From NCBI GenBank assembly GCA_035221665.1, contig CM069159.1, positions 32,364,001-32,428,000 of the forward strand: 64,000 nucleotides of DNA. Direction: 5' to 3'. The notes under the pieces are model-generated. The model had not been told where the DNA came from. It did no database searches and saw only the letters and a program-made list of their open reading frames with translations. This DNA is from Okamejei kenojei. Taxonomy: Eukaryota. Positions 18,216-49,818 of this stretch are shown here, in pieces; position 1 is the first letter of the stretch; every line of letters begins with the position of its first letter. Made by a program: the position numbers and the translations under genes.

Positions 18216-19660
18216 ATTGAACCCAAGGAAGGGAAAAAATGGGTTTTGTCTTCAAATTACTCGCGCTTGACTCTCCAGAAATAAACTTCAAGATTTAAAT
18301 CTCAACCTTTTTGGTAATGAATTGTGTGCTCAGTGAACGGTAATGTTTCTATCTGTTGATTTCTGCAGCCTTTACAGAGAGTTGGGGACCTGACACATCA
18401 TGAAGATATTCACTGTTGCTTTGGTGCTCTTGCTGGTTACAGGTACAGAAGACAAACTCTTCAAACTAACCGAAACACAATCATGAAAATGCACACGGAA
18501 AAATGTGAACGTACTAAATCGCCAGTATTGATTGCCCTCATTGACTTTCAATTTGTAGCATCTATTGATGAAGGGAGCAGTTTAGATTAGTTTAGAGATA
18601 CAGCGCGGAAACAGGGCCTTCAGCCCACCTTGTCCGCACCGACCAGCGATCCCCGCACATTAATACTATCCTACATACATCAGGGACAATTTTACATTGG
18701 TACCAAGCCAATTAACAATTGGTGGCACATCAAGGTGAGGGGGGCAGGTAACTGCTCATCTGATGGTGAGAGAGAGATCAAGTATTGCCTGAGCAACAGG
18801 AAGAACTACCTTGTTTTTTTCAAAACCTCCTTGGTCTTCTTCACAACCTCCTTGTTCTTCTTCAGAACAGGGGCAAGAGACCTTCCGTACCCACCTGAAG
18901 ACACAAGGTTTTTCTTCTCTTCCAAAAGACTATAGTAATGTTTCTCCTGGAGCCTGGATTCTCAGTGTCTGCTGGGACCACCTTTGAGGGATTTGGGAAA
19001 GGTGTTCAGAACATTTCCAAGTGATCTGGAAACTTGTTGCTTTCTTTGTTGCCATACTTCCCGCACCGAGGCCCATAGTAAGGCCAAGGATATTTGTTTT
19101 TATATTTGGGATCAAACATTTCAGCTTACTTAAGTTGCATAGCAGCAGAGTGCTAAGACTTTTCAAGGTTTCAGATTCATTGAATTTACTTGTTTAAATG
19201 GTTTGGTTTAAATGTTTGATCGACATCCTTGGCCTTATTTGGAGTTTCTGGTTAAACTATTGCCGGGAGGTGAAATTTACGCAAGCCGGGAGGAAGGGCG
19301 ATCTCTCGACGAAAAGCGGCAGAGTTGGAGTCACTGCACTTGTCGAGACGAGAGGTGGCGCTGTAGCCGTGGCAGCGCGAGAGTTTCCCGTTACATGCAC
19401 GCGGAGCTGTGACATGATTTCCCGACATAGTAAAAATGCTATTACAAAATGTGTCATAAAAGTGATGTCTCGGTGACAAATTGTCACGTTGGCTCTTCGA
19501 CCAATCGCTGGAGGATAAATGTTTGATCCCGAATATAATAAATGCTATTTACAAAATGTCGTCACTTTGTTCAGTACATCTCCGTGCAACATTCTAAAAA
19601 GTATGAAATTATATCAATCAGTGAGCTCTCTCCGATAAACCTTGTTGCCATTTGGTCGAA

Positions 19661-19975
19661 TAATAGACAATAGACAATAGGTGCAGGAGTAGGCTGCTCG
19701 GCCCTTCAAGCCAGCACCGCCATTCAATGTGATCCTGGCTGATCATCCATACTCAGTACCCCGTTCCTGCTTCTCCCCATATCCCCTGACTACGCTATCT
19801 TCAAGAGCCCTATCTAGCTCTCCCTTGAAAGTTTCCAGAGAACCGGCCTGCACCGCCCTCTGAGGCAGAGAATTCTACAGACTCACAACTCTCTGTGTGA
19901 AAAAGTGTTTCCTCATCTCAGTTCTAAATGGCTTACCCCTTATTTTTAAACGGTGGCCCCTGGTTCTGGACTCTA
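19661..19975 (-). mobile_element. CR1-type LINE 3' end
   Basis: (aatagac)n tail and CR1 3' UTR; same insertion in copies 2 (38706-39020) and 3 (48013-48325). Confidence 0.8.
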
Positions 19976-20504
19976 TCACAATATGACCTGATCACAAATG
20001 TTGTTTAATAGCACATTTTCTTAAAGGTTTTTGTGAGGTTGGATGTGGAGAAACTAAGGCCAAGGATGAGAGTTCAAAAATAAGGGGTTGCACAAGATAC
20101 AAGTTACAAGATACATTTACTTGTCACATGTGCCAGATGGCACAGTGAATTGAATCACCATACAGCCATACACTAAAATAAAGAACACAACACAAGATAG
20201 ATTTAAACATAAACCATGACTGTGATTAGCATCCGACGTCGGGCTGGAGGACAACCTGCTGGACCTGCCAACGGCCGCTTTCCGCAACTTATTCCGCGGG
20301 TGTTGTTGATGTCAATCCGGGCCCAATCCGAGCTTAGGCATCGCCCGCACCGGGTGAAAGTTGTACAACTCTGGTTTTCCCCGAGGTGAGGCTGGTAGGC
20401 CGGAGGTGGGGGCGAGGGGAGTCGCGCCCGCCGCCAGGAAGCGATCTAAGGCCTAAATAAAAAAAGAAGTGAAGGATGAGTTTCAAAGCGCCCTGTGGCA
20501 AGTG

Positions 20505-20912
20505 AAGGTTGTCCAGTGAAGCCAGAGAGTGGAATGAAATGGAAGTTTACAAAATCATGAGAGGAATAGATCGGGTAGATGCACAGTCTCTTGCACAGAG
20601 TAGGGCAATCGAGGACCAGAGGACATAGGTTCAAGGTGAAGGGGAAAAGATTTAATAGGAATCCAAGGAGTAACTTTTTCACACAAAGGATGGTGGGTGT
20701 ACGGAACAAGCTGTCGGAGGAGGTAGTAGAGGCTGGGACTATCCCATCGTTTAAAAGACAGTTGGACAGGTACATGGATAGGACAGGTTTGGAGGGATAG
20801 GGACCAAGCACAGGTAAGTGGGACGAGTGTAGCTGGGACATTGTTGGCCGGTATGGGCAAGTTGGGCCGAAGGGCCTGTTTCCACACTGTATCACACTAT
20901 GACTCTATGACT
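20505..20912 (+). mobile_element. CR1-type LINE 3' fragment
   Basis: TRGHRFKV...FFTQRMVG C-terminal ORF2 motif and (tatgactc)n tail; paralog at 39160-39566. Confidence 0.8.
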
Positions 20913-21268
20913 CCAGGAGGAGCGATATCTTCTCTCAGTGCCCTGAGTCACACTTGCGCAAAGGATGATGGGTATTTAGAGTTATTGAGTATTTTTAAGG
21001 TAACAATTCCTGCATAAAAGTTGTGAAAAGTTATCTAGGAGGCTGTGAAGGCTTTGGAGAAGGTGCAGAAGAGGTTTAACAGAAGACGGACACAAAATGC
21101 TGGAGTAACTCAGCGGGTGAGGCAGCTTCTGTGAGAAGGAATTGGCGACGTTTTGGGTCGAGGCCCATCCTGGATTAGAGAGTAATCTAATGAGGAGAGT
21201 TTGGACAAACATGGATTGGTTTCTCTGGATCTACGGAGACTGAGGGGAGCTGATAAAATTATATCAAA

Positions 21269-22252
21269 CTAGATCAAGTGGGACCCATTGGGTCTCGTTC
21301 CCCTCAATGCTTGGGGGGGGGGNNNNNNNNNNNNNNNNNNNNNNNNNNNNNNNNNNNNNNNNNNNNNNNNNNNNNNNNNNNNNNNNNNNNNNNNNNNNNN
21401 NNNNNNNNNNNNNNNNNNNNNNNNNNNNNNNNNNNNNNNNNNNNNNNNNNNNNNNNNNNNNNNNNNNNNNNNNNNNNNNNNNNNNNNNNNNNNNNNNNNN
21501 NNNNNNNNNNNNNNNNNNNNNNNNNNNNNNNNNNNNNNNNNNNNNNNNNNNNNNNNNNNNNNNNNNNNNNNNNNNNNNNNNNNNNNNNNNNNNNNNNNNN
21601 NNNNNNNNNNNNNNNNNNACACTNNNNNNNNNNNNNNNNNNNNNNNNNNNNNNNNNNNNNNNNNNNNNNNNNNNNNNNNNNNNNNNNNNNNNNNNNNNNN
21701 NNNNNNNNNNNNNNNNNNNNNNNNNNNNNNNNNNNNNNNNNNNNNNNNNNNNNNACACAAACACCCCCCTAACCACACACACNNNNNNNNNNNNNNNNNN
21801 NNNNNNNNNNNNNNNNNNNNNNNNNNNNNNNNNNNNNNNNNNNNNNNNNNNNNNNNNNNNNNNNNNNNNNNNNNNNNNNNNNNNNNNNNNNNNNNNNNNN
21901 NNNNNNNNNNNNNNNNNNNNNNNNNNNNNNNNNNNNNNNNNNNNNNNNNNNNNNNNNNNNNNNNNNNNNNNNNNNNNNNNNNNNNNCACACACAACACAC
22001 ACTAACCCCCCTACCACACGCACACACACACACTACACACACACCACCACCCCCCCCACACGCAGACACACACACTAACCATCCCCCCACACACACACAC
22101 ACACGCACACACACACCACCCCCCTCCACATACACACGCACACACACAGACCACTCCCCCACGCACACACACACTAACCAACACACAAACCACACACACA
22201 CACACACACACACACTAACCACTCCCCCCCCACCACACACACACACACACAC
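21269..22252 (-). repeat. (CA)n/cacactaaccac minisatellite with assembly gaps, bounded by a Helitron-like 3' end
   Basis: CTAG at 21269 next to the hairpin gacccattgggtc; N runs; CA-rich repeats. Confidence 0.7.
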
Positions 22253-22778
22253 AGGAGGGGCAAAGATTAAAGGGGCAAGGTCTTTACACAGAGTGGTGTG
22301 TGTCTGCAATGCACTGCCAAGGGTGATTGTGGGAGATATTATTATAATTATTGTTATTATTATTGATATGATAATGATGTTTAAGAGGCTTTTAGGCACA
22401 TGAACAAATGTGCAGGAACCGCAGGGATAGGCAGAGGAGATTAGTTGAACTTGGCATCCTGTTCAAAGCACACATTTTGGTACACGTGACAATGAACTAA
22501 ACTGAACTGAACTGGGGAACCGCAGGCTGTGGCAAGACTATTTTGGGGCCCTATCATGTGCAAATTATGACCACTATTTAAACAAAGAGTGCACTTCAAA
22601 AATATTCTATTTATTGATTTTCAAGTTCCTTGGGATATCCTACAGCTGTGAAAGATGATAACGATATACATTGCTTAATGTATAAGAAGTGACTTTCAGG
22701 GTCAAATTGTTAGAGGAATTCAGACTGGTTGAGAATCAAGAAGGGTTTGTATAGAGCCTAAACACTGGTTTGAATGGG

Positions 22779-23085
22779 CGGCACGGTGGCGCAGCAGTAG
22801 AGTTGCTGCTTTACAGCACCAGAGACCCAGGTTCGATCCTGACTACGGATCCTGTACGTACTTTGTACGTGCTCCCCGTGACCTGCGTGGGTTGTCTCTG
22901 GGTGCTCTGGTTTCATCCCACATTCCAAAAACGTACAGGTCTTTGTCTTTTTATTTAAGATGCTTGGTCGATTTAATTGCAAATCGTCCCTAGTGGGTGG
23001 GGGATAGTATTAGTGTACTGGGATCGCTGGGTAGCGCGGTGGGCCGAAGGGCCTGTTTCCATGCTGTATAACTCAACTAAACTAA
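22779..23085 (+). mobile_element. tRNA-derived SINE in the last intron
   Basis: ggcacggtggcgcagcagtagag...ggttcgatcc head and actaa tail; also at 42048-42354 and 49168-49475. Confidence 0.8.
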
Positions 23086-24160
23086 GGCGTGCTCGTGTGT
23101 CCTTTCTTAATGCTTACCTCATTGTATTTTAACCCTCTGAAGAAGGAAGCTGACAAGGCGTGACAACCTGGCATTGATTGGAGAGCTTTCGATTGATGCG
23201 TGATACTGCTTTAAGCTTTGGCACAAGAACTGAAGCAAGAGTTCTACATTGCTCAATACATTAGTAACAAGCTTGATATGCTCCAATCGATATTAACTAC
23301 TGTTGGTGAAGACCTGCATGAAGAACTTGGCAGTGAAGCCTACGCCAAAATACATGATCAGCTGGTGTCAATCCACAAAAACATTAAACAGTACCGCCAC
23401 CAGAATGAGACCCGGCACCACCACCTTTAACCACACAATCGCGGGCAACACCGAGAAAATTGAAGAATGGCCGAGGAGAGATGCTCTTTACGGAGACCCT
23501 ACGAGAAATATACGAGCTGCTGTTGTTGATGAACTGTTTCTCCACACGGTTTGCTGCCGTCTTTAATGTAGCAAACTGAATTGCTGATTTGATTTGAATT
23601 TCAATTTTTATAAAGTATATTTGGTTATAAAGGGCAATGAAATTCTTATGTTCAGGAAGGAACTGCAGATGCTGGTTTACACCGAAGGTAGACACAAAAA
23701 GCTGGAGTAACTCAGCGGGTCAGGCAACATCTCTGGAGAGCAGGGATGGGGGACGTTTTGGGTTGAGACCCTTCTTCAGACATTATGCCTTGTAGAACTT
23801 TATTTTAATTGAAAATTACTATTAAACAATGCGTCTTTGATCTAAATCTCTCTGTATTGTCTTTTCCATATTTCATCAATTCAAAATTAATTTTCATTAA
23901 AAATGTTACTAATGATGGTTCAGCTTCGACTGCGGGTGGGAGATTGCGACCTTCACGTGGTCCGCCCTGTTTCAACTACTGCAATCAACTCGACGTGCAC
24001 AAACAAGATCAAATAGAACAAGTTGACCTACAACTTTAGGCTGTGCTCGCCATACGCAAGGAGAAGATCCTACTGCGATCTAGGTGCAATTCCCAATTTA
24101 GTTCACGCCTGATAAAAATGTTTTGAAGGTGGATTTGCTTTCAGATCTCCCTAGTTTGTG

Positions 24161-24900
24161 CGGCACGGTGGTGTAGCGGTAGAGTTGCTGCCTTACCGCA
24201 CTGGCAGCGCCAGAGACTGGGTTCGATCCCGAGCTGTCTGCACGGAGTTTGCATGTTTGCCCCGTGACCGCATGGGATTTCCGTGAGATCTTTGCTTTCC
24301 TCCCCCACTCCAAAGTACAGGTTTGTAGGTTAATTGGCTTGGGAGAATTGTAAATTGGCCCTAGTGTGTGTAGGATGGTGTTAATGTGCGGGGATCGCTG
24401 GTCATAGTGGACAGGGTGGGCGGAAGGGCCTGTTTATACGCTGTACCTCTAATCGAAACTAAACTAATCTATTCAGACTGCTGCTGAGCTGGGTAAACCT
24501 GTACGTCTTTGGAGTGTGGGAAGCAACCGAAGATCTCGGAGAAAACCCACCCAATTCACGGGGAGAAGATACAAACTCCGTACAGACAGCACCCGCAGTC
24601 AGGATTGAACCCTGGTCTCTGCCGCTGCAAGCGCTGTAAGGCAGCAACTCTACCCCAGTGCCACCGTGTGGACTGTCAGCAAGGAGTCTGTACATTTTCC
24701 CTGTGACCGTGTGGGTTTTCTCCGGGTGCTCTGGTTTCATCCCACACTCCAAAGACGTTCAGGTTTGTGGGCTAATTGGCTTTGGTAAAATTGTCCCTCG
24801 TATGTGTAGGATAGTGTTAGTGTGGGGGGTCACTGGTCGGCACGGACTCGGTGGGCTGAAGGGCCTAATACAGCGCTGTATCTCTAAACGAAAAACTAAA
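24161..24900. mobile_element. Cluster of SINE copies in both orientations
   Basis: SINE heads/cores at 24161(+), 24493-24668(-) and 24669-24900(+); repeated downstream of each gene copy. Confidence 0.7.
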
Positions 24901-25220
24901 AAGGTTTTAGTCGAGACCCTTCTTCAGATTGAAAAAAAAGTCACGTTGACAAAAAATACGACAGAACATTTCCTGCTCTTGAAATTGAAATTTTACTTTA
25001 GTTTATTGATGTCACGTGTACCAAGGTAAGGTTACAGTGAAAAGCTTTGTACAAGACTTCATGTACAAGCAACTTTTGGATCAGTTGTGAACTAGAGTCT
25101 GGAGATTGGAGGTGTGGCAACAGTTGTACTCAAGTCTAGGAATGGATCTAAGGTGTATCTGAGTCCTGGAACGTTCAAGATAAAATTGAGACACAGAATG
25201 ACCATCTCACTGTTACAAAT

Positions 25221-25391
25221 GAGGAGAAGTTCCGGGAGGGCTTGAAAGAGTTCAAAGCTAAAGTCCTTCAGTACAATGAAGGTCTCCACAACAAAGTCAG
25301 CCATAACGTTGAAGAGTACTGTATCACACTAGGTTCTCTAGCTGACGATCAGAAGGAGAATGCCAAAGGATTCCAGCAAAAGTTGACCCCG
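25221..25391 (+). pseudogene. Duplicated internal fragment of the ApoA-IV-like last exon
   Basis: EEKFREGLKEFKAKVLQYNEGLHNKVSHNVEEYCITLGSLADDQKENAKGFQQKLTP, near-identical to 11856-12026; no acceptor or upstream exons. Confidence 0.9.
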
Positions 25392-25667
25392 TACATAGGG
25401 GGCGCCGTCCTGTATGGTATGGCTGCCCAGCCTTCAGCTGTTTGTTTTTCACACTTTTCTTTATTTTTAGTGAGTTAAATTGTTTTGTTTGGAATCTATT
25501 CTTTTTTATGTGGGGGGTGGGGTGGGGGGGGGAAGGGGGGAAACTACTTTTCCTGGTCCCTACCTGGTCGGAGAGGCAGCTTTTCTCCGGGATGCACTTT
25601 CGACCCGTCCTCGCGGCCTACCAGCAGGCCTGGAGCGACATTTCCTGAGGAGACCGCCCAACAGCAA

Positions 25668-26617: not shown

Positions 26618-27950
26618 AAAGCTGTTGTCACAAAGAACATTTCCATTGGCTATTACAAACTATCTGGGTGTTGGAGGAATGATGTTATAAATATGCCATG
26701 ACTTTAAAGAGTCCACAATTGTAGATTACCATATGATGGGCATCCTGAACACTCTTTGCCATTTGATTTACAGCCCCATTAATGTGATTTAATGCACATA
26801 ATAAAGTTGAAGAGGGGGTTTCAGTAGCTTTGCTTAACTGCAGACTTCATCGACAATTATCCGCAACATGTTCATGTGGATATCATTTCATCTGAACTCA
26901 ACTGATCAATACTCGGTATCTGCTTATCCCACTTTATCCACTTGCAATCAGAAACAGGAATGTTTTATACTGTTTTGGACACAAAGTGCTGGAGTAACTC
27001 AGCAGGTCAGGCAGCATCTCTGAAGGAAAAGGATGGGTGACGTTTCGGGTCGAAACCATTTCTCCAGATACCTTCCCTAGATTTCCACCGAAAATGTCAG
27101 CCATCCTATATCTCCAGAGATGCTGCCTGACACGCTGAGTTACTCCAGCAATTTGTGTCCATGTTGCAGGCCATAATGTCGGTATAGACCAGCATCTGCA
27201 GTTCCTCCCTATTCAAGTTTATACAATGAACTTTGAGGCACAGCGGTGCAGCTGGTAGAGCTGCTGCCTCACAGGGATCCAGGTGCGATCATGACCTTGG
27301 TTGCTGTCTGTACGGAGTTTTCATGTTCTCCCTGCGACCACATGGGTTTTCTCCAGGTGTTCCGGTTTCCTCCCACGTCCCGAAGACATGTGGGATTGTC
27401 GGTTAATTGGCCTGAAAATGGGATAATTTTGAACCCGTGTGAACAAGTGATAGATGGTTGGTGTGGACTCGGTGGGCCGAAGGCCTTTTTCCGTGCAGTA
27501 CCTTTGAAATGACCGGAACTAACAAAAACAAATGGCGCAGAAATGATAGAGATAACATTTTGGTTCTGTCTACAAGGACGAGAACACAAATAACATCCCA
27601 CAGAAATACTACAGAACCAAAAGACTAATGAAAAGGAAGACAGAAAGGAAATTAGTCTGAATGATAAAAAAGTAACGCTGGATAAAATAATGGGATTGGC
27701 TGTTGGTAAATCCTGGGGCCTGATGATCTACATCCAGGCTATTTAAAGAGAGAAACATAGAAATAGTGGACACATTTGTTATCATCTTTCAAATGTTTAT
27801 AGACTTCCGGTGGCGCTATGGAGGGCTAGAGGATAACGCCAGCCAGCTCCGCGCAAATAACGGGAAAAAAACGGGGATTTACGGACCTACCTGCTGCCTG
27901 CCGTCTCTGCACCGATTGTTGTGAGTGACGTCATCAGGCGCGCGACTAGT

Positions 27951-28815
27951 TATGTCTACAGCACGCAGCCCAACCGAAAAATCGAAAATTCGATCTACCA
28001 GGCTGAGACCGGCAGAAGGCCTGACTGAAGCCTCGGACTCAGGTAGGACCTCATCCCAGGAAGATGTGTCGAAAAGAACAGCGAAAAAAACGGAAGAACT
28101 TAAAACTTTTATTTCACGTGAAATTGCTGGTTTAAAGGAGGAAATAAACCAGATGAACACTGAAATGAAAGAATTACAACTTGAAACTAATTCCAATATT
28201 AATACCAAGGCCAAGAAAATATCGGAAGATTTGAAGAAAGATATCTCAGAAATGATGAGTGAAATGTCAAAGGAGATGAATGATAAGATTGAAAAGGTGA
28301 AAACCAACTTTGAAAAACGGCTGAATCCTGTGGAGAAGGTACTGGATCAACAAAACCTAAGAATCACGGGTATTCCTGAAGGGGGAGAGAAAGATGAAGA
28401 TCCCCGAGAATTTACTGCGAATCTACTGCAAAACGTTTTATCTCTGGAACAAAAGCCTTTATTAGCCCAAGCACACAGAGTGATGAGACGTCAGACAAGA
28501 CCAAATGCCCCCCCAAGACAAATGATAATAACGGTACAATATGACTACGTCCTGGAGGAGATAATGCAAATAACTTCGAGAAACAGAAACCTTGTATTTG
28601 AAGGACACAGGATTAGTATCTACCGAGATTACCCAGCAGAAGTTTCCAGGAAACGAAAAGCATTTAATGAATCTAAAAGTCTCATGAGGGGGATGGAAAA
28701 CTTGAAATATGGCCTGATTTACCCAGCTACTTTAAGAGTTACTTTTAACAAGAATGAATATTTTTTCTCCAATCCTGTGGAAGCACTGGACTTTGACCGG
28801 AAGATTAAGACCTGA
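27951..28815 (+). CDS. L1 ORF1 protein (coiled coil, RRM, CTD; Transposase_22-like)
   Basis: NLRITGIPEG, AHR...PRQMII, ISIYRDYPAEVSRKRKAF, YGLIYPATLRVTF motifs. Confidence 0.85.
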
Positions 28816-29759
28816 GAAGGCCTCATCATCGAATATACTGACTTTCATGGACTTTACAAGAATCTACAAGACTCTGTAAGACTTTATAAGGATTTGCAGG
28901 ACCGGATGGAACTGGATAACGCTGGATGGAAGCTGGAGAAAGATGTGGATCGGAAGACCTCGCATGGATGCTAATAATTAGTACAACTACATTACTAATA
29001 CAAACAACTAATAAACATTAAAATTATACTGTGGTATTTTCACTAATCACTAATTTTACTACTAATATAATAACTAATAAATATTAAAATTATACCGTAT
29101 CACTTTTATTAATTAGAATTAATCATTATTACTAATGACTAATGTTCATTTATATTGGAATGATTAGAGACAAATATAGAGCTGGATTTCATTTGTCCCC
29201 TTTGGAGATTTTTCTTTTACACCAGTAATTTTCATTTTTATTTCTTGTTTTCCTTTCTTTTCGTGTGTTTTTTTTTATAATTAGATTTTCAAATAAGTTT
29301 TAAATATATGTATTTTCACATTTTCGATTATTATAAACTGAATATTTCTTTTTCTTTTTTTTTTCTTTTTTTCAATTTAATACATATCATTATGGAATAA
29401 CAATTCCAAAAAACCAGGGAGCTGGTTAAGTTAGTAACATCAACTACGGAAGTCGGTAGATGGTTAGCCATGCTAGTATGGCTAGCACTAACTACAATAA
29501 TACTAGATGTAGTTTTTTCTTCCTTTGTGCACTATACTAACCTCTTAATCTACCCTCTCTTCTTTTCTTTTATAAACTATTATTGTTTTTTTCAGTTTGA
29601 ATGGAGTTATATAATGGATCAAAGGAGATATACACGTGAGAGGCATTCAAGGGACTTAAAATTCATCTATTCGGTGTTCGGGTGTAAGGTCGGGTCTGTC
29701 GGGCTGAGCCATTGGCTCTATTACAGACTCCCATAGACAAAAGATACAAGACTTAAAAA

Positions 29760-32700
29760 TGAATACGGGGAATGAAGGAATAACGTTTTGTAGCTAGAAC
29801 GTTAAAGGTATAAATGAACCAATTAAGAGAGGTAAAGTATTAGCACATTTAAAAGCAATTAAAGCTGATGTAATCTTTATTCAAGAAACTCATTAAAAAA
29901 AAGATGCTGAGCATTGGCTGAAAGCTAAATGGATAGATAAAACGTATCACTCTTCTTTTACACACAAATCAAGAGGTGTAGCAATATTATTTCGTAAAGG
30001 CATTTTATTCAAACATACATCAACTATAGCTGATAACGATGGCAGATACATTATTGTAATAGGAGAATTAAATGCACAAAAAATGATTTTTGTTAATGTG
30101 TATGGACCAAACTTTGATAGTCCATTGTTTTTTAAGAACATATTTAACAATATTCCGGAATTAACACAATATAACCTAATAATTGGAGGAGATTTAAATT
30201 GTACATTAGATCCTTACTTAGACAGATCTACAAGACAAAGGAAAATCAAATCCCATTCCAGTGACTTATTAAATGCATATATGGAAACTACTAATATTAA
30301 AGATGTTTGGAGAGTATAAAATCCCCCCTGGACAGAGAATATCCTTTTATTCGCGGTCATAAAACCTACTCAAAAATAGATTACTTTTTGGTCGATGCCA
30401 AACTTATTTCACTCACTTATAATTCTAAATATCACAATATTATAATTTGAGATCATGCACCCTTAACATTTAAGATTAAAATAAATGTTAAAACAGAAAA
30501 ACGGGGACAATGGAGATTTAATCCACAAATTTTAAAAAACAAAATAACTCAGGAATATATTGCAGAACAGATTAAGACTTTCTTTGAAATAAATGATAAA
30601 CCGGAAATATCTTGTTCCTTGTTATGGGAAACGTTTAAAGCATATCTCCGGGGAATTATGATTTCCTTTCAAGCATTTTATAATAAAAAGAATTGAAGGG
30701 ATCAACAAGAACTGGAAAAGGAGATCAAACAATTAGATACAGAGAATGCAGCTAATCCATCCATAATATTACATAATAAAATTGCAGCACTGAAATATAA
30801 ATTAAATAAAATATATTCAGATCAAGTTGTAAAACTTTATCAACACACTAAACAATTACAGTTTGAATTTGGAGATAAACCTAAAAAATTATTGGCTCGC
30901 CAATTAAGGAAGATGGAGGCAGAAAAAATAATCCACAGGATTAAATCACATAATGGCGAACTTTTAATACGACCTAAAGATATTAATGAGAGATTTCTGC
31001 AATATTATAAAAACTTATCCACTGCTAAAACAACAGAAAGCAAGATAGGAATAGAAGCATTTTTTTAAAAAAAGTAATCTGAAGGGGTTGGACTTACAAA
31101 ACAGAGAATCATTAAATGCTGAAATTTCAGTAAAAGAAATCCAAGAATCTATTAGATCATTAAAAAATGGTAAAACACCGGGACCAGATGGTATTGGCTC
31201 GGAATTTTATAAAATATTTTGTGATCAGATTGTACCACGTCTGAAAACATTATATGAATATATATATACACAGCAGAAACTACCAGAAACGTTAAATGAA
31301 TCTATTATAACACTTATACCTAAAATGAACAAAGATCTGGATGAACCAGGATCATTTAGAGCTATAGCCCTTTTAAATACTGATCAAAAGATATTAACTA
31401 AATATTAGCACAAAGGCTAAGCACAGTTATTAAACGAATAATTCACCCCGATCAAACAGGATTTATACGAAAACGATATTCCTCAAATAACTTGAGACGG
31501 TTATTCAATATTATATATTGGAAAAGAGGTATTAAAAAAGATCTAGTAGTCATTTTCGTTAGATGCAGAGAAAAGCCTTTCAGTCGAATGGTCATATTTG
31601 TTTTCGGTTATTTATGGAAACTTTTAAATTGGGAGAGAAGTTCATACTTGGATCAAATTATTATATACTAACCTAATAGCCAGAATAATAACAAATCAAT
31701 GCAAATCAACTAAATTCAGTTTTATCTCGAGCTGTAGACAAGGTTGCCCCTTTTTATTCCCACTACGTTTGCACTTGCAAATAGAACCGTTAGCTCAGAG
31801 GGTGAGATCACATCCTGAAATATATGGGTACGATACTAGAGATACTAAAAATAAAATTTCCCTATACGCGGATGATGTATTACTTTATATCACAAACCAG
31901 AAATTAGTACCAAAATTTGTTAAAATTAATCACTGAATTCGGATCTTTTCAGGATATAGTATCAATAGTGGAATAAAAGTGAACATGCCAATTAACGATA
32001 AATAACTTACCAACATATACAACAATTCCTTTTTAAAGATAACAAACTAAAAAATAAATATCTTGGAATTATGTAAACAAAAAGATATGCTTCTTTATTT
32101 TAAATCGTAACTTCCACTATTATTGAAATAAATAAATAAGAACATTATTTATGGGAAAACTCTAACCCCATTTCAATGTTTAGGTAAAATTTAATGTAAT
32201 AAAATTGATTTTTCCCTCCTCCCACAAATATTATATTTTTTTTTTTTCCAATTAATTCCGATATAACTGTCCTAACAATTTCTTAAGAAGGTGGACTCCC
32301 CAGTTACTACCCTATTATATTTGGGTATTTATAAGAGCCATAGAATAAATAAAAACATCTTATGTCAATTTAAAAATAAATTGAGGTTTTAGCATACCAA
32401 ACTTTTTTTATGTTTTATTTACTGGGCAGGTTAATATTAAAAATATGAAATTTTGGTTAGAAGAGACAGATAAACCAACCAATTTGGTTAAAAATGGAAA
32501 AAAAGAAGACTGTTCTCCTTTTGAAAATCAGTTCAATAATATTTGCTAATAGTAATTTAGATAAGAAAACTATAGTTGAAAATTACCCCGGATAATAGAA
32601 AGTGGAATACGTATTTGGGAAACAAATAAAAGGAAAACATTAAATCTGAAATCTATTCCACTAGCCCATTACCATTGTAAATAATATATAACATTTAAAC

Positions 32701-37913: not shown

Positions 37914-37956
37914 ATGAAGATATTCACTGTTGCTTTGGTGCTCTTGCTGGTTACAG
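37914..37956 (+). CDS. Small apolipoprotein-like secreted protein copy 2, signal-peptide exon
   Basis: Acceptor tttctgcag upstream, accatcATG, MKIFTVALVLLLVTG (43 nt, phase 1), donor g|gtacag. Confidence 0.85.
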
Positions 37957-38504
37957 GTACAGAAGACAAACTCTTCAAACTAACCGAAACACAATCATGA
38001 AAATGCACACGGAAAAATGTGAACGTACTAAATCGCCAGTATTGATTGCCCTCATTGACTTTCAATTTGTAGCATCTATTGATGAAGGGAGCAGTTTAGA
38101 TTAGTTTAGAGATACAGCGCGGGAAAACAGGGCCTTCAGCCCACCTTGTCCGCACCGACCAGCGATCCCCGCACATTAATACTATCCTACATACATCAGG
38201 GACAATTTTACATTGGTACCAAGCCAATTAACAATTGGTGGCACATCAAGGTGAGGGGGGCAGGTAACTGCTCATCTGATGGTGAGAGAGAGATCAAGTA
38301 TTGCCTGAGCAACAGGAAGAACTACCTTGTATTTTTTTCAAAACCTCCTTGGTCTTCTTCACAACCTCGTTGTTCTTCTTCAGAACAGGGGCAAGAGACC
38401 TTCCGTACCCACCTGAAGACACAAGGTTTTTCTTCTCTTCCAAAAGACTATAGTAACAGCCTGGATTCTCGTGCCTGTCAGTGTTTTCCAATGTTTCTCC
38501 ATAG

Positions 38505-38658
38505 GATCGCAGGGTGCAGTCATCCCTGCAGATAAGAGTCTGCAGGAAGATTCAACGGAATGGGACACTCCTTTGAGGGATTTGGGAAAGATCGGGGAAG
38601 AAATTGTGGACGTTGCCTGGGACAAATTGTCCAGTTGCACTTTGTTCAGAACATTTGC
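38505..38658 (+). CDS. Small apolipoprotein-like protein copy 2, middle coding exon
   Basis: tttctccatag| GSQGAVIPADKSLQEDSTEWDTPLRDLGKIGEEIVDVAWDKLSSCTLFRTFA |gtaagt; 154 nt, phase 1-2. Confidence 0.85.

Positions 38659-41474: not shown

Positions 41475-41517
<43 letters not shown>
39925..41517 (-). repeat. cacactaaccac/(CA)n minisatellite with a Helitron-like CTAG/hairpin end
   Basis: Paralog of 21269-22252; ctagatcaagtgggacccattgggtc. Confidence 0.75.
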
Positions 41518-41520
<3 letters not shown>

Positions 41521-42411: not shown

Positions 42412-42691
42412 AAGGAGGCTGACAGGTCCTGGCAATGATTGGAGAACATTTGGATTAATCTTGATACCTTTAAGCGAATGGGCACGAGAACTGAAGCAAG
42501 AGTTCTACATTGCTCAATACATTAGTAACAAGCTTGAAATGCTCCCATCAATATTAACTACTGTTGGTGAAGACCTGCATGAAGAACTTGGCAGTGAAGC
42601 CTACGCCAAAATACATGATCAGCTGGTGTCAATTCACGAAAACATTAAACAGTACCGCCACCAGAATGAGACCCGGCACCACCACCTTTAA
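42412..42691 (+). CDS. Small apolipoprotein-like protein copy 2, last coding exon (158-aa product)
   Basis: Acceptor ccctctgaag; in frame RRLTGPGNDWRTFGLILIPLSEWARELKQEFYIAQY...NETRHHHL*; 43+154+280=477 nt. Confidence 0.8.
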
Positions 42692-45120
42692 CCACACAAT
42701 CGCGGGCAACACCGAGAAAATTGAAGAATGGCCGAGGAGAGATGCTCTTTACGGAGACCCTACGAGAAATATACGAGCTGCTGTTGTTGATGAACTGTTT
42801 CTCCACACGGTTTGCTGCCGTCTTTAATGTAACAAACTGAATTGCTGATTTGATTTGAATTTCAATTTTTATAAAGTATATTTGGTATAAAGGGCAATGA
42901 AATTCTTATGTTCAGGAAGGAACTGCAGATGCTGGTTTACACCGAAGGTAGACACAAAAAGCTGGAGTAACTCAGCGGGTCAGGCAACATCTCTGGAGAG
43001 CAGGGATGGGGCACGTTTTGGGTTGAGCCTTCTTCAGACATTATGCCTTGTAGAACTTTATTTTAATTGAAAATTACTATTAAACAATGCGTCTTTGATC
43101 TAAATCTCTCTGTATTGTCTTTTCCATATTTCATCAATTCAAAATTAATTTTCATTAAAAATGTTACTAATGATGGTTCAGCTTCGACTGCGGGTGGGAG
43201 ATTGCGACCTTCACGTGGTCCACCCTGTTTCAACTACTGCAATCAACTCGACGTGCACAAACAAGATCAAATAGAACAAGTTGACCTACAACTTTAGGCT
43301 GTGCACGCCATACGCAAGGAGAAGATCCTACTGCGATCTAGGTGCAATTCCCAATTTAGTTCACGCCTGATAAAAATGTTTTGAAGGTGGATTTGCTTTC
43401 AGATCTCCCTAGTTTGTGCGGCACGGTGGTGTAGCGGTAGAGTTGCTGCCTTACCGCACTGGCAGCGCCAGAGACTGGGTTCGATCCCGAGCTGTCTGCA
43501 CGGAGTTTGCATGTTTGCCCCGTGACCGCATGGGATTTCTGTGAGATCTTCGCTTTCCTCCCCCACTCCAAAGTACAGGTTTGTAGGTTAATTGGCTTGG
43601 GAGAAGTGTAAATTGGCCCTAGTGTGTGTAGGATGGTGTTAATGTGCGGGGATCGCTGGTCATAGTGGACTGTGTGGGCCGAAGGGCCTGTTTATACGCT
43701 GTACCTCTAATCGAAACTAAACTAATCTATTCAGACTGCTGCTGAGCTGGGTAAACCTGTACGTCTTTGGAGTGTGGGAAGCAACCGAAGATCTCGGAGA
43801 AAACCCACGCAAATCACGGGGAGAAGATACAAACTCCGTACAGACAGCACCCGAAGGGCCTGTTTATACGCTGTACCTCTAATCGAAACTAAACTAATCT
43901 ATTCAGACTGCTGCTGAGCTGGGTAATGGAAGTGATGTTGGACACTAGAGCTCTACAGAGGTACATGAATGCTGGAGCTGTGTGGACGGGGCTCAAGGCA
44001 TCGTGCCTAATAACAGGGAACGGCATCAAAAGAAAATGTCGCTGGTGTTGACCCAATGACTTTCTGGGCCGATCAATAAAAACATCAAGCTCGACACAAA
44101 CAGCTCTAGTAACTCATCGCTTCAGGTAGCATCTCTGGAGAAAAGGAATAGGTGATGTCACCGTGGCACAGCTGTAAAGTTGCCGGCCAAGTCCCGGTTC
44201 GATCCTGACTACGGGTGCATTTGATTTAGTTTTAGAGATACAGCATGGAAACAGGCCCAACGGGTCCGCGCCGACCCCCGATCCCCGCACATTAACACCA
44301 TCCTACACACACTAGGGATAATTTACCTACAAATCTCTGGAGTGTGGGAAGCAACCGAAGATCTCGGAGAAAACCCACGCAAATCACGGGGAGAACATAC
44401 AAACTCCGTACAGACAGCACCCGCAGTCAGGATTGAACCCTGGTCTCTGCCGCTGCAAGCGCTGTAAGGCAGCAACTCTACCCCAGTGCCACCATGTGGA
44501 CTGTCAGCAAGGAGTCTGTACATTTTCCCTGTGACCGTGTGGGTTTTCTCCGGGTGCTCTGGTTTCATCCCACACTCCAAAGACGTTCAGATTTGTGGGC
44601 TAATTGGCTTTGGTAAATTTGTCCCTCGTGTGTGTAGGATAGTGTTAGTGTGGGGGATCGCTGGTCGGCACGGACTCGGTGGGCTGAAGGGCCTTTTTCT
44701 GCGCTGTATCTCTAAACAAAAAAATAAAATGGTTTGGTGTTGAGAGGCAACATTTCCAGCTCTTGAAATTGAAATTTTACTTTAGTTTATTGTTGTCACG
44801 TGTACTGAGGTTAGGTTACAGTGAAAAGCTTTGTTTGTACAAGATTTCATGTGCAAGCAACTTTTGGATCAGCTATGAACTAGAGTCTGGAGATTGGAGG
44901 TATGGCAACAGTTGTACTCAAGTCTAGGAATGGATCTTAGGTGTATCCGAGTCCTGGAACGTTCAAGATAAAATTGAGACACAGAATGAAGATCTCACAG
45001 TTACAAACGTGCTTTGACCTTTTGTGTGTGTTCCACAAGCTCAGAGATTAGAACATGACCAGGCATTTTACAAAGTAGGGTTTCCTCAAAATTAACATTT
45101 ATTTCTTGCTTATATTACTT

Positions 45121-45712
45121 AGAAACATAGAAACATAGAAAATAGGTGCAGGAGGAGGCCATTCGGCCCTTCGAGTCAGCACCGCCATTCATTGTGATCA
45201 TGGCTGATCGTCCGCTATCAATAACCCGTGCCTGCCTTCTCCCCATATCCCTTGACTCCACTAGCCCCTAGAGCTCTATCCAACTCTCTCTTAAATCCAT
45301 CCAGTGATTTGGCCTCCACTGCCCTCTGTGGCAGGGAATTCCATAAATTTACAACTCTCTGGGTGAAAAAGTTTTTTCTGACCTCAGTCTTAAATGTCCT
45401 CCCCTTTATTCTAAGACTGTGGCCCCTGTTTCTGGACTCGCCCAACATTGGGAACATTTTTCCTGCATCTAGCTTGTCCAGTGCTTTTATAATTTTATAT
45501 GTTTCTACAAGATCCCCCTCATCCTTCTAAACTCCAGTGAATACAAGCCTAGTCTTTTCAATCTTTCCTCATATGATAGTCCCGCCATCCCAGGGATCAA
45601 TCTCGTGAACCTACGCTGCACTGCCTCAATCACAAGGATGTCCTTCCTCAAATTCGGAGACCGAAACTGTACACAATACTTCAGATGTGGTCTCACCAGA
45701 GCCCTATACAAC
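45121..45712 (-). mobile_element. CR1 LINE 3' fragment
   Basis: [12 protein letters not shown]...RGHSLRIKG...FFTQRVVNLWNSLP; (catagaaa)n tail; unit C only. Confidence 0.9.
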
Positions 45713-46044
45713 TACACATGAATTTGGGATGCAGAACAGCTGGGCTCTGAGCCCCAGACACAAGACTTGGCATACTGTAAAATCAGGTGGGGGAATTCAA
45801 CTGAGTAGGAAGGAACTGCAGATGCTGGTTTAAACCAAAGATAGACAAAAAAAAAGCTGGAGTAAGTCAGCGGGTCAGACAACATCTCTGGAGAGAAGGA
45901 ATGGGTGACGTTTCGGGTCAAGACTTCTTGATCCAAAACGTCACCTGTTCCATTTTTTCCAGAAACGCTGCCTGAGCCGCTGAGTTACGCCAACTTTTTG
46001 TGTCAATTTCCCGCTACTGTTTGCTGGACACAAACACTGAAAGA

Positions 46045-46199
46045 TGTTTATCCTTGACTCTAGCCTGACGCACGTTAGGAAAGATGGAATTTGCACTGGT
46101 TGGCCATCTCTTATCAGATGTGGGAGATAACGTCCAGCTATTAAACAGCTGGGATCTGAGCCCCACACACAAGACTGACAGAGAGTCAATAGCAAGCAG
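46045..46199 (+). promoter_or_regulatory. Putative promoter plus non-coding exon 1 of copy 3
   Basis: TGTTTAT, TGACGCA, two GATA sites, TATTAAA 46139-46145, donor cag|gtaaga at 46199. Confidence 0.6.
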
Positions 46200-47207
46200 G
46201 TAAGAGGGATTTTTTCTACTCTGCGCGGGAAGAAGACTGGTAAAGTAGGAACTTTTTGTTCAGTGATATTTCTGGTATTCAGCACCCGAAATGTCCTGAT
46301 TACCAGAATATTTCTCAAAATGAGTGTGCTGGGTGTCACCAGGTCACATTGACTGGGGCACACTGGGACCAGTCCCAGACAAGGTAGTCGGTTAGTCCAA
46401 GTAGGTGCAATGATAAGGACTCTTCTAACATCGTCAACACCTCTGAGAAAGATAGAGAACACACAGAGGTTTTCCATTCCTGGCTGTTGTAAAGATCCCG
46501 GGGTCTGAATGTGATAAGTTTGCAGATCCTGAAGCTAATGGTGAGGACACTGCGAATGCACAGTGGCACAGCGACTGCCTTTCAGCCCCCGACACCCCGG
46601 TTCAGGTGACTACGGGTGCTGTCTGTACGGAGTTTGTACGTTCTCCCTGTGACCGTGTGGGTTTTTTCCTGGTGCTCCGGTTTCCTCCCACACTCCAAAG
46701 ACGTGCAAGGTTGTATGTTAATTAGCTTCGGTAAATTGTCGCTTGTGTGGAGGATGGAACTAGTGTTTGGGTGATTGTTGGGCAGCACGGACTCCGTGGG
46801 CTGAAGGGTCTGTTTTGCACATGCCGATAGGATGTCCCATCTACACTAGTCCCACCTGCCTGCCTTTGTCCCATATCCCTCTAAACCTTTCCTATCCATG
46901 TACCTGTCTAAATGTTGTTAAAGCTTCAATGTGTTGAGAAACCAATATTGGATAAGTTAAAAGATGAGTGGTAAAGAGAACATTAAAAATGATAATATGA
47001 GGAAATGAACCCAAGGAAAGTGGAAAAAATGGTTTATTGTTTGTCCAAGTCTTCGAGCATCGCTAATTACTCGCGCTTGTCTCCAGAAATAAACTTCAAG
47101 ATTTAAATCTCAACCTCTTTGGTAATGAATTGTGTGCTCAGTGAACGGTAATGTTTCTATCTGTTGATTTCTGCAGCCTTTACAGAGAGTTGGGGACCTG
47201 ACACATC

Positions 47208-47250
47208 ATGAAGATATTCACTGTTGCTTTGGTGCTCTTGCTGGTTACAG
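47208..47250 (+). CDS. Small apolipoprotein-like protein copy 3, signal-peptide exon
   Basis: MKIFTVALVLLLVTG, identical to copies 1 and 2. Confidence 0.85.
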
Positions 47251-47798
47251 GTACAGAAGACAAACTCTTCAAACTAACCGAAACACAATCATGAAAATGC
47301 TCACGGAAAAATGTGAACGTACTAAATCGCCAGTATTGATTGCCCTCATTGACTTGCAATTTGTAGCATCTATTGATGAAGGGAGCAGTTTAGTTCAGTT
47401 TAGAGATACAGCGCGGAAACAGGGCCTTCAGCCCACCTTGTGCGCACCGACCAGCGATCCCCGCACATTAATACTATCCTACATACATCAGGGACAATTT
47501 TACATTGGTACCAAGCCAATTAACCATTGGTGACACATCAAGGTGAGGGGGGCAGGTAACTGCTCATCTGATGGTGAGAGAGAGATATATCAAGTATTGC
47601 CTGAGCAACAGGAAGAACTGCATTGTTTTTTTCAGAACCTTGTTGGTCTTCTTCACAACCTCGTTGTTCTTCTTCAGAACAGGGGCAAGAGACCTTCCGT
47701 ACCCACCTGAAGACACAAGGTTTTTCTTCTCTTCCAAAAGACTATAGTAACAGCCTGGATTCTCGTGCCTCTCAGTGTTTTCCAATGTTTCTCCATAG

Positions 47799-47952
47799 GA
47801 TCGCAGGGTGCAGCCATCCCTGCAGATAAGAGTCTGCAGGAAGATTCAACGAGATGGGACACTCCTTTGAGGGATTTGGAAAAGATCGGGGAAGAAATTG
47901 TGGACGTTGCCTGGGACAAATTGTTCAGTTACACTTTGTTCAGAACATTTGC
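47799..47952 (+). CDS. Small apolipoprotein-like protein copy 3, middle coding exon
   Basis: GSQGAAIPADKSLQEDSTRWDTPLRDLEKIGEEIVDVAWDKLFSYTLFRTFA with canonical AG/GT. Confidence 0.85.
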
Positions 47953-48500
47953 GTAAGTATTCAAAGTGATCTGGAACTTGTTGCTTTAACCTACCTTGTT
48001 GCCATCTGGTCTAATAGACAATAGACAATAGGTGCAGGAGTAGGCTGCTCGGCCCTTCAAGCCAGCACCGCCATTCAATGTGATCCTGGCTGATCATCCA
48101 TACTCAGTACCCCGTTCCTGCTTCTCCCCATATCCCCTGACTACGCTATCTTCAAGAGCCCTATCTAGCTCTCCCTTGAAAGTTTCCAGAGAACCTGCCT
48201 CCAGCGCCCTCTGAGGCAGAGAATTCTACACACTCACAACTCTCTGTGTGAAAAAGTTTCCTCATCTCAGTTCTAAATGGCTTACCCCTTATTCTTAAAC
48301 TGTGGCCCCTGGTTCTGGACTCTGTCACAATATGACCTGACCACAAATGTTGTTTAATAGCACTGATGTATAGATTATTGTTATCCCACACACATCAGGG
48401 ACAATTTTACATTGGTACCAAGCCAATTAACCATTGGTGACACATCAAGGTGTGGGGGGCAGGTAACTGCTAATCTGATGGTGGGGGGTGGGGGGGGGAA

Positions 48501-48900
48501 GAGAGAGAGAGATCGAGATCGAGAGAGAGAGATCGAGAGAGAGAGAGATCGAGAGAGAGAGAGAGAATCGAGAGAGAGAGAATCGANNNNNNNNNNNNNN
48601 NNNNNNNNNNNNNNNNNNNNNNNNNNNNNNNNNNNNNNNNNNNNNNNNNNNNNNNNNNNNNNNNNNNNNNNNNNNNNNNNNNNNNNNNNNNNNNNNNNNN
48701 NNNNNNNNNNNNNNNNNNNNNNNNNNNNNNNNNNNNNNNNNNNNNNNNNNNNNNNNNNNNNNNNNNNNNNNNNNNNNNNNNNNNNNNNNNNNNNNNNNNN
48801 NNNNNNNNNNNNNNNNNNNNNNNNNNNNNNNNNNNNNNNNNNNNNNNNNNNNNNNNNNNNNNNNNNNNNNNNNNNNNNNNNNNNNNNNNNNNNNNNNNNN
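48501..48900. repeat. (GA)n/GAGAGATC microsatellite plus assembly gap
   Basis: Direct reading. Confidence 0.9.
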
Positions 48901-49532
48901 CAGGAAGAACTGCAGGCTGTGGCACGACTATTTTGGGGCCCTATCAAGTGCAAATTGTGACCACTTTTTAAACAAAGAGTACACTTCAAAAATATTCTAT
49001 TTATTGATTTTCAAGTTCCTTGGGATATCCTACGGTTGTGAAAGATGATAATGATATACATTGCTTAATGTATAAGAAGTGACTTTCAGGGTCAAACTTT
49101 TAGAGGAATTCAGACTGGTTGAGAATCAAGAAGGGTTTGTATAGAGCCTAAACACTGGTTTGAATGGGCGGCACGGTGGCGCAGCAGTAGAGTTGCTGCT
49201 TTACAGCACCAGAGACCCAGGTTCGATCCTGACTACAGATCCTGTACGTACTTTGTACGTGCTCCCCGTGACCTGCGTGGGTTGTCTCTGGGTGCTCTGG
49301 TTTCATCCCACATTCCAAAAACGTACAGGTCTTTGTCTTTTTATTTAAGATGCTTGGTCGATTTAATTGCAAATCGTCCCTAGTGGGTGGGGGATAGTAT
49401 TAGTGTACTGAGATCGCTAGTTGGTGCAGTGGGCCGAAGGGCCTGTTTCCATGCTGTATAACTCAACTAAACTAAGGCGTGCTCGTGTGTCCTTTCTTAA
49501 TGTTTACCTCATTGTCTTTTAACCCTCTGAAG

Positions 49533-49818
49533 AACGAAGCTGACAAGGCGTGACAACCATTGGACACAATTGGCCTTTCGCTTGATGCGTGATATATCTG
49601 CTTTGGCAGATGAGCTGACGTCGCAAGAGTTCTTCATTGCGCAATACATTAGTAACAAGTATGAAATGCTCCAATCGATATTAACTACTGTTGGTGAAGA
49701 CCTGCATGAAGAACTTGGCAGTGAAGCCTACGCCAAAATACATGATCAGCTGGTGTCAATCCACGAAAACATTAAACAGTACCGCCACCAGAATGAGACC
49801 CGGCACCACCACCTTTAA
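49533..49818 (+). CDS. Small apolipoprotein-like protein copy 3, last coding exon (160-aa product)
   Basis: ccctctgaag| TKLTRRDNHWTQLAFRLMRDISALADELTSQEFFIAQY...NETRHHHL*; 43+154+286=483 nt. Confidence 0.8.

Follow-up and report, generated by a model that had tools for sequence, protein, structure and literature searches.

What kind of gene stands three times in a row beside an apolipoprotein gene in a skate genome, and what might its product do? We analysed a window of 64,000 nucleotides of Okamejei kenojei DNA, in which the feature at 18400..49818 consists of three side-by-side copies of a skate gene, here named C. A first-pass annotation had described it as a tandem family of small secreted proteins of no recognisable class. 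On balance, we favour the reading that copies 2 and 3 arose by recent tandem duplication of a gene derived from ApoA-IV/A-I and shortened by frameshift, and that their likely products are small, secreted, helical proteins with affinity for lipoprotein and membrane surfaces.

Two open copies and a pseudogene

The window holds two open copies of gene C and one pseudogene, all on the plus strand. Each open copy has a signal exon (43 nt, phase 1), a middle exon (154 nt, phase 1-2) and a long last exon that runs to the stop codon. In copy 2 these lie at 37914..37956, 38505..38658 and 42412..42691, and in copy 3 at 47208..47250, 47799..47952 and 49533..49818. As initially proposed, splicing yields open frames of 158 aa in copy 2 and 160 aa in copy 3, both ending in NETRHHHL. 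GT donors and AG acceptors are present at all four internal junctions. The predicted mature protein of copy 3 has 142 aa, a mass of 16.7 kDa and a pI of 5.4.

Copy 1 retains an intact 43-nt signal-peptide exon (18400..18442), identical to those of copies 2 and 3. Its exon 2 survives as remnants at about 18964..19017, located by pairwise alignment with copy-2 exon 2, with several deletions and the acceptor lost; tblastn recovers only eight of its residues. Its last exon (23143..23430) has stops in all three frames, and the 3′ part is 96-97% identical to copies 2 and 3. With most of exon 2 missing and exon 3 closed in every frame, copy 1 is a pseudogene, and the three-exon gene originally read in all three copies holds for two of them. 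The duplicated blocks that contain the copies are 91-98% identical. When the whole genome was searched at the protein level with exon 3, four of six candidates matched, namely copies 1 to 3 and a paralog, gene D.

Support for gene status, which the first annotation had tied to spliced transcripts, comes from a contig of public run X1 that joins exon 2 to exon 3 exactly, in a run whose RNA label was guessed by a tool and whose source species is coded and may differ from that of the window. All 30 of the 30 letters joined to exon 3 in this contig equal the last 30 nt of copy-2 exon 2, and the contig's match to copy 3 starts exactly at 49533.

The neighbouring gene A (9392..12272, plus strand) is of ApoA-IV/A-I type. 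Its last exon (11738-12272) matches PF01442 at E 4.4e-31 and human ApoA-IV at E 9.3e-29, and like the exon at 10617-10767 it is open. The ApoA-IV-like neighbour noted at first inspection is therefore real in its last exon, but the gene looks broken in its first coding exon (9392-9426), which has 35 nt and a stop at codon 5. A second, partial copy of the gene A last exon lies between copies 1 and 2 (25220..25392, plus strand).

Descent and truncation of gene C

Gene D, a family profile and the SIK3 locus together establish, at the level of sequence comparison, that gene C descends from ApoA-IV/A-I stock; to call it a protein of no recognisable class was thus an overstatement. Gene D, 14 kb beyond the window, encodes a 211-aa paralog with the same layout, checked in this genome's own gene, and an exon 2 that is also 154 nt long. 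In a search within the region, gene C matches it at E 1.5e-11, and 55 of 160 residues of copy 3 are identical (34%). Gene D itself has a weak Pfam apolipoprotein match (PF01442, E 8.6e-6), and its best PDB sequence matches are human ApoA-IV and ApoA-I. Human exchangeable apolipoprotein genes have exon phases like those of gene C, and the layout recurs in neighbours D, E and A, in keeping with the resemblance first noticed. The same general layout is given for exchangeable apolipoprotein genes in a section of PMC6854765.

The family profile (A6, 21 rows) matches human ApoA-IV at E 8.9e-12. The best stretch places profile positions 48-186 on ApoA-IV residues 27-165, spanning the part retained in gene C, with the middle-exon region, where exchangeable apolipoprotein genes have their common 33-codon block of three 11-mers, aligned to residue 27 onward. 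Gene C is thus linked to a named member indirectly, through gene D and the profile. Matches to ApoA-I are weaker (E 2e-4 to 0.09). PF01442 is matched at E ≤ 0.01 by 11 of the 21 alignment rows, and no relative attains its curated cut-off of 90 bits, the best reaching 36.5 (single-gene model). Gene C proteins, searched as four C exons and one full-length protein from Rhinoraja, gave no apolipoprotein Pfam match, including ApoA-II and ApoC, and PF04711 was matched by one D ortholog only (E 0.048). For the Amblyraja D ortholog, the top three clusters by ESM Atlas features are ApoA-I at 0.90, with 191-193 shared features. Profile against profile, the similarity to ApoA-IV-type exons of this genome was weak (probability 29%, E 6e-4). 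The first annotation was right that proline-punctuated 22-mers are absent: copy 3 has proline only at mature positions 4 and 19, and autocorrelation at lag 22 is 0.05 in gene C versus 0.38 in gene A (at lag 11, 0.09 in copy 3).

Position tells the same history. A kinase exon upstream of the cluster is identical to human SIK3 at 34 of 41 positions, which puts the gene C cluster downstream of SIK3, as is the human APOA cluster; the human order appears in part of PMC6549162 as BUD13-ZNF259-APOA5-APOA1-SIK3. Genes A, D and E, which match PF01442, stand in tandem at this locus. A second ApoA cluster on the same contig is flanked by ZPR1, and clear, separate ApoA-IV-type genes lie at C29:23.97-23.99 Mb. 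An origin from the ApoE/ApoC cluster was rejected: CLPTM1 maps to C41 and C2, and C29 gave no Porin_3 (TOMM40-family) match. The scan for flanking genes covered 136 of 314 non-repeat ORFs of at least 75 aa, so that small genes may be missed.

The wider family comprises shark and skate proteins. Six shark genera have relatives of 194-231 aa, for the most part labelled 'uncharacterized'. Of 13 profile matches 12 are named, all of them elasmobranch and nine 'uncharacterized' or 'hypothetical'; the profile search found no named full-length ortholog among known apolipoproteins. These results agree with the lineage-specific cartilaginous-fish offshoot that had been suggested. D-type members include Amblyraja LOC116991403, Leucoraja LOC129712293 and Heterodontus XP_067910118.1 ('apolipoprotein A-IV-like'), together with unnamed proteins in Cetorhinus, Scyliorhinus, Chiloscyllium and Pristiophorus. 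They share with gene C the signal peptide, an N-terminal motif and a conserved core, at 33-39% identity to copy 3, but retain some 50 or more extra C-terminal residues and evolve more slowly. Long relatives carry three to six N-glycosylation sequons each (13 of 13 rows), and gene C one or two.

The closest relative is Rhinoraja longicauda LOC144608743 (XP_078282909.1, 'uncharacterized protein'), with 160 aa, 52% identity to copy 3 and a short His-bearing end. Compared with copy 3, it lacks eight residues where exons 2 and 3 meet, has a doubled tail motif and two sequons, and is more acidic. We built a tree of 22 rows, midpoint-rooted and with no named bony-vertebrate sequence, in which a Leucoraja fusion model and a minus-strand gene were left out and a Pristiophorus fusion model was split in two. 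The Rhinoraja ortholog groups with copies 2 and 3 (support 100/100), C may be sister to skate D (79/75), and a clade of 16 rows joins C and D (96/99). By this clade membership and its core motifs, gene C belongs to the unnamed elasmobranch D-type subfamily. An ESM Atlas search with copy-3 exon 3 gave no usable match.

Alignment with gene D demonstrates why the copies are short: a net +1 frameshift placed the stop early, so that the last ~50 residues were lost. The former C-terminus can still be read out of frame within the 3′ UTR, at 42687..42827 in copy 2 (46 open codons) and 49814..49954 in copy 3, both on the plus strand. Against the gene D C-terminus these remnants score 66 and 60, respectively (0 of 5000 shuffles in each case). 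The Rhinoraja ortholog has the same short end. The sequon and His-rich tail described earlier are present in copies 2 and 3. That both are pure frameshift products was rejected, as the sequon column is occupied in seven of ten long relatives. Aligned at the DNA level with gene D alone, the extra base falls before the Asn of the tail sequon, whereas scoring against ten long relatives prefers a shift after the sequon (+6.6 vs -6.2), in a model with two indels rather than one. The tail sequon is probably ancestral, with novelty limited to the stop and the final His residues. The His-rich tail itself is labile, to judge from one X1 variant that terminates directly after the tail Asn and a Leucoraja database model that continues 13 residues beyond the gene C tail end.

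Proposed surface binding and its alternatives

A hydrophobic N-terminal stretch of 18 residues is seen in gene C and would serve as a cleaved signal peptide, the protein being secreted, probably from liver or gut. Mean hydrophobic moments are 0.34-0.35 in copies 2 and 3, versus 0.22 in shuffles (0 and 1 of 1000), and 0.31 in the Rhinoraja protein (0 of 500), with a periodicity peak at 95-105 degrees (about 100). Such amphipathic helices would insert into the phospholipids at the surface of plasma lipoproteins. With its C-terminal helices lost, the gene C protein may bind more weakly or more exchangeably than D. The locus itself would turn over by birth and death, which would account for the state of copy 1 and gene A and for the rapid evolution of gene C. 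AlphaFold models of the Amblyraja D ortholog and Rhinoraja C are all-helical, but add little at a mean pLDDT of 47. Amphipathic periodicity is, in general, widespread among helical proteins. A nurse shark plasma protein, Seq1466 (146 aa, uncharacterized), was considered as a member of the same family and rejected, since the relevant part of PMC9207270 assigns it invertebrate homologs, unlike the gene C family.

The main rival to a lipid-surface-binding role is an immune one. Gene C might face pathogens, binding LPS, LTA and other lipids of bacteria or the membranes of parasites, in plasma or in mucus, with the hypervariable start of exon 3 as a contact site under diversifying selection; we think this unlikely. 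The rate of evolution in gene C is roughly double that in D (path length in the tree to the Rhinoraja ortholog 0.89 vs 0.45; mature identity 45-47% vs 66%). One coding segment of 80-90 nt is hypervariable (42412..42493 in copy 2, 49533..49620 in copy 3, plus strand): here indels in copy 2 shift and then restore the frame relative to copy 3, and the two copies differ by 24 substitutions in 75 aligned nt (32%) plus gaps, against 2.3-3.2% in introns. Both forms occur in run X1. Among the changes listed, 21 of 23 changed codons in run X5 and seven of seven in X1 are non-synonymous, and fish and lamprey apolipoproteins are described as antibacterial in parts of two papers (PMC7431520, PMC3666997). 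However, the X5 excess does not depart significantly from neutrality (binomial p 0.14; changes listed), and positive selection was not detected. Antimicrobial helices are cationic, unlike the acidic gene C protein (net charge -8; -16 in Rhinoraja). Further, this segment is scrambled in pseudogene copy 1 too, a pattern compatible with a mutation hotspot.

Alternatively, copies 2 and 3 could be transcribed but decaying duplicates under relaxed selection, their open frames survivors without an important function. Between them no purifying selection was detected (pN 0.033, about equal to pS at 0.037, over 130 codons), copy 1 is broken and gene A looks so, the Leucoraja database model (P0021) combines an A-type exon with a C-type tail in one fusion, and the stop comes earlier in one X1 variant. 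Nor did word-seeded protein searches that started from exon 3 of copy 3 yield a close Rajidae ortholog (no match for one candidate at 51-165 aa and 48 at 166-2000 aa), but these blanks carry little weight, because the 160-aa Rhinoraja ortholog exists and was missed. That ortholog is open and keeps its signal peptide and amphipathic pattern at only 52% identity, and so much change without a disabling mutation would make a pseudogene unlikely. Given that the indels of the hypervariable segment bring copies 2 and 3 back into frame, and that no indel was seen in the exon-3 contigs of all four runs compared, we regard decay as quite doubtful. An assembly artefact, in which haplotypes of one polymorphic gene were placed in tandem, is highly improbable. 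The region is repeat-rich, and in introns and UTR the difference between copies 1 and 2 is only 0.2-1.2%, but there are three versions where two haplotypes would give two, copy 3 is 2-3% different from both others, the duplicated blocks carry different insertions, and several sequence types cover the same stretch in run X1. We retain surface binding as the preferred role. At low confidence, we also speculate on an undescribed, N-glycosylated elasmobranch subfamily beside SIK3, whose truncated skate member would be a diversifying, pathogen-facing lipid binder with its contact segment recast, from one tandem copy to another, by indels that shift the frame and restore it, while the canonical SIK3-adjacent ApoA decays.

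A branch of the exchangeable apolipoproteins

Among named proteins, ApoA-IV (human 9hx4, 3s84; PF01442) is the best profile match, collinear from the N-terminal block, and amphipathic helices are common to both. ApoA-IV has 396 aa with proline-punctuated 22-mers, which the short gene C protein lacks, and this genome's separate ApoA-IV-type exons form a clade of their own with gene A, apart from C and D (100/99, midpoint-rooted). ApoA-IV has also lost its first intron, according to part of PMC6854765, whereas gene C has a likely splice acceptor just 5′ of its ATG. ApoA-I shares the SIK3-adjacent position and supplies the top ESM Atlas clusters for D, but its profile match is weaker, and gene C is much shorter and without 22-mer repeats. 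The 43-nt signal exon and signal-end motif are presumably as in ApoA-I.

Teleost Apo-14/ApoA-II and type IV antifreeze protein resemble gene C in size and in their helical, secreted character. Gene C owes its small size to the truncation of a D-type gene, and the Pfam searches with its exons and the Rhinoraja protein gave no ApoA-II or ApoC match; Apo-14 is identified as the ApoA-II ortholog in a portion of PMC3666997. Gene C is a variant within the exchangeable apolipoproteins and defines no new protein class.

The shark-and-skate branch to which gene C belongs is mostly 'uncharacterized' in databases. With at least three further gene types at the skate locus (C, D and E), and D- and E-type relatives in six shark genera, the earlier count was too low. 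Gene C offers a rare coding segment rewritten by compensating frameshifts, and its comparison with D provides a dated natural truncation through which one may ask what the C-terminal helices do. In skate plasma, albumin was not detected and lipoproteins have been suggested for fatty-acid transport, as stated in a passage of PMC9617420 (its reference 32). The proteins of genes C, D and E are testable candidates for fatty-acid carriers in skate plasma.

Copies 1-3 and matching sequencing runs

The first-pass annotation treated the three tandem apolipoprotein-like genes at window 18400-49818 (copies 1-3, together gene C; the gene letters used here are our own) as a family of three. The exons proposed for copies 2 and 3 hold up, splicing across canonical GT-AG junctions into open frames of 158 and 160 amino acids, but copy 1 is a pseudogene: its signal exon is kept, exon 2 is reduced to short remnants, and the last exon, exon 3, has stops in all three frames. 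Gene C is therefore a real family, with two copies open and the third a pseudogene. All three are embedded in blocks that have been duplicated and share 91-98% identity. The duplications are recent, given the small divergence of introns and UTRs: 0.2-1.2% for copy 1 against copy 2, and 2.2-3.2% for copy 3 against the other two. Exon 3 as a genome-wide query gave four matches from six candidates, namely copies 1-3 and one diverged gene past the window end; exon 2 found only copies 2 and 3.

Exon 2 of copy 1 (window 18925-19050) was lost in several short deletions that are distinct from one another; a small piece there is duplicated, and about 600 nt unique to copy 1 adjoin the site. A degenerate LINE-like element (window 27925-31936), with a duplicated block beside it, separates copies 1 and 2; from their motifs, we take its frames to be coiled-coil ORF1-like, endonuclease-like and RT-like. 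A 33-nt tandem repeat of eight copies with 89% matches (window 50274-50543) lies just downstream of copy 3.

Parts of the stretch occur in nine of ten public sequencing runs, and four (X1, X3, X4 and X5, their sequences being contigs) were compared on exon 3, none having indels in the coding part. The match of one X1 contig begins exactly at acceptor 49533, and the 30 letters before it agree with the end of copy-2 exon 2 at 30/30, with copy 3 at 28/30 and with the intron at 8/30. This contig is a spliced form. Run X1 also contains the copy-2 type of hypervariable segment (28/30). X3 matched 161 nt of copy 3 with zero differences, and X4, the sole run on record as RNA, covered 156 nt with one difference. 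In X5, the most distant run compared, the letters before window 49603 resemble an intron end with acceptor, so that organism may lack the hypervariable first part of exon 3 or have it elsewhere.

Neighbouring genes and a second ApoA cluster

Cluster genes were surveyed across 200 kb either side of the window. On the same strand as the copies lie gene D (G000:C29:32441731-32446519, C29 being the contig carrying the window; 211 aa from coding exons 46, 154 and 436 nt long) and gene E (L008, C29:32458172-32461427; first two coding exons of 43 and 127 nt; 207 aa), both weakly matched by PF01442 (E 8.6e-6 and 2.5e-6, respectively). Exon 3 of D is 78% identical to Amblyraja, and the closest database relatives of D are skates, which suggests that the window itself comes from a skate. 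Gene E is diverged and apolipoprotein-like, with four sequons and relatives in Heptranchias and Pristiophorus; in Pristiophorus, D and E are joined in the database model as a single protein of 420 aa.

The ApoA-IV-like neighbour reported earlier is confirmed in gene A (window 9392-12272), whose last exon is clearly ApoA-IV-type. Its first coding exon, of 35 nt, has a stop at codon 5, although exons 2 and 3 are open. Gene A is the ApoA-IV/A-I-type gene nearest SIK3, the position of APOA1 in humans, and among the 150 of 2034 candidates scored in the PF01442 search, none besides it looked clearly like ApoA-I. Loss of ApoA-I in this skate could explain the broken gene, as could a mistake in the assembly.

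Upstream of the cluster, a kinase exon is identical to human SIK3 at 34/41 positions, and the assignment rests on this identity, since SIK1 and SIK2 are absent among the matches listed. POU2AF-family exons lie downstream. A second ApoA cluster lies beside ZPR1 at C29:23.96-24.0 Mb. In humans, according to PMC6549162, ZPR1 (ZNF259), APOA5, APOA1 and SIK3 form one block. With ZPR1 beside one cluster and SIK3 beside the other, the two look like halves of that human block, presumably parted by rearrangement.

The ZPR1 side (C29:23.94-24.07 Mb, loci L065-L081) and the SIK3 side (C29:32.32-32.46 Mb) share one contig, with 8.4 Mb between them, and both have ApoA-family genes of their own. Those on the ZPR1 side include three near-identical ApoA-IV-type tandem genes (L071-L074, C29:23.967-23.993 Mb), the second and third with apparently frameshifted last exons. 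Two identical 49-nt signal-peptide-like exons (C29:24020970, L077; 24065039, L081) and a diverged PF01442-matching exon on the minus strand (C29:24000866-24001477, L075) possibly mark further small apolipoprotein genes.

Family placement and truncation

The C proteins alone match no apolipoprotein model, which is why they had been left unnamed. The suggestion that they form no recognisable class must nevertheless be set aside, as C falls within the ApoA-IV/A-I stock, being neither ApoA-I nor ApoA-IV proper. C aligns with D over its whole length (55/160 residues identical), and the alignment extends to sequence before the ATG. A 21-row family profile matched human ApoA-IV with E 8.9e-12, the two running collinearly from the N-terminal block, and in the ESM Atlas the clusters nearest the Amblyraja D ortholog were ApoA-I (0.90). 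Comparing profile with profile gave a weak match to the ApoA-IV-type exons of this genome (29%, E 6e-4). A 22-row tree, midpoint-rooted and without bony-vertebrate rows, placed copies 2 and 3 and the 160-aa Rhinoraja ortholog LOC144608743 in a 100/100 clade inside a 16-row D-type group, itself parted from E-type and ApoA-IV-type rows at 96/99.

Searching 1.84 billion representatives with a profile gave 13 proteins. Names exist for twelve, directly or via a cluster member, and each of the twelve comes from an elasmobranch (Rhinoraja, Leucoraja, Pristiophorus, Heterodontus, Cetorhinus, Scyliorhinus, Chiloscyllium and Heptranchias), with 'apolipoprotein A-IV-like' as the label of three; the other nine are 'uncharacterized' or 'hypothetical'. 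Classical ApoA-IV was not among the 13, so this elasmobranch-only list is no proof of absence in chimaeras and bony fish. In full-text literature lacking most subscription journals, no title or abstract opening concerned an elasmobranch D-type subfamily, and the locus name LOC116991403 occurred in 0 papers. We conclude that C is a truncated, fast-evolving skate variant, and that the elasmobranch branch to which it belongs is a nameless offshoot of the ApoA-IV/A-I stock.

Read one base on, the 3′ UTRs of copies 1-3 align with the D C-terminus (scores 66, 66 and 60; 0/5000 shuffles for each copy; other two frames at chance), in a frame open for 46 codons. The net +1 shift falls in a stretch of 28 nt that precedes the stop. 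Aligning the DNA with that of D places it before the Asn; protein scoring against ten long relatives places it after the sequon, which 7/10 have at that site. Because the Rhinoraja ortholog has the same type of end and the Leucoraja database model P0021 the same shifted frame, the truncation predates the recent copies. The tail itself is unstable: a variant in X1 stops just past the Asn, Leucoraja reads on and the Rhinoraja motif is doubled. A function that depends on the His residues, for example metal binding, is therefore unlikely.

Evolutionary rate and likely function

C has evolved about twice as fast as D (tree path to the Rhinoraja ortholog 0.89 versus 0.45; mature identity 45-47% versus 66%). 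Copies 2 and 3 show pN 0.033 and pS 0.037 over 130 in-register codons. Within the first 80-90 nt of exon 3, the two are separated by 24 substitutions among 75 aligned bases, an alignment-dependent count, and by indels that throw the reading frame off and then bring it back. Changes in X5 are non-synonymous in 21 of 23 changed codons, an excess not significant against neutrality (p 0.14), and neither purifying nor positive selection on C is supported at codon level in these two comparisons.

Assuming an 18-residue signal peptide, mature copies 2 and 3 have 140-142 residues, 16-17 kDa and pI 5.3-5.4. The AlphaFold models are all-helical, with low confidence. C has lost the 22-mer signal; the hydrophobic moment (0.34-0.35) is level with D and gene A and above shuffles. 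Each of 13 long D-type rows has 3-6 sequons, whereas two 190-aa ApoA-IV-type stretches have zero.

The argument for function is drawn from the Rhinoraja ortholog, which is open, amphipathic and signal-bearing at 52% identity. Copy 1 has decayed, and we consider it improbable that C as a whole consists of decaying duplicates. That the triplication is an assembly artefact is more improbable still. A role as a pathogen-facing lipid binder is unlikely, if slightly less so than decay. Exchangeable apolipoproteins generally bind lipoprotein surfaces reversibly through amphipathic helices. By analogy, the C protein is probably secreted, and its amphipathic helices would bind lipoprotein surfaces in the same reversible manner.
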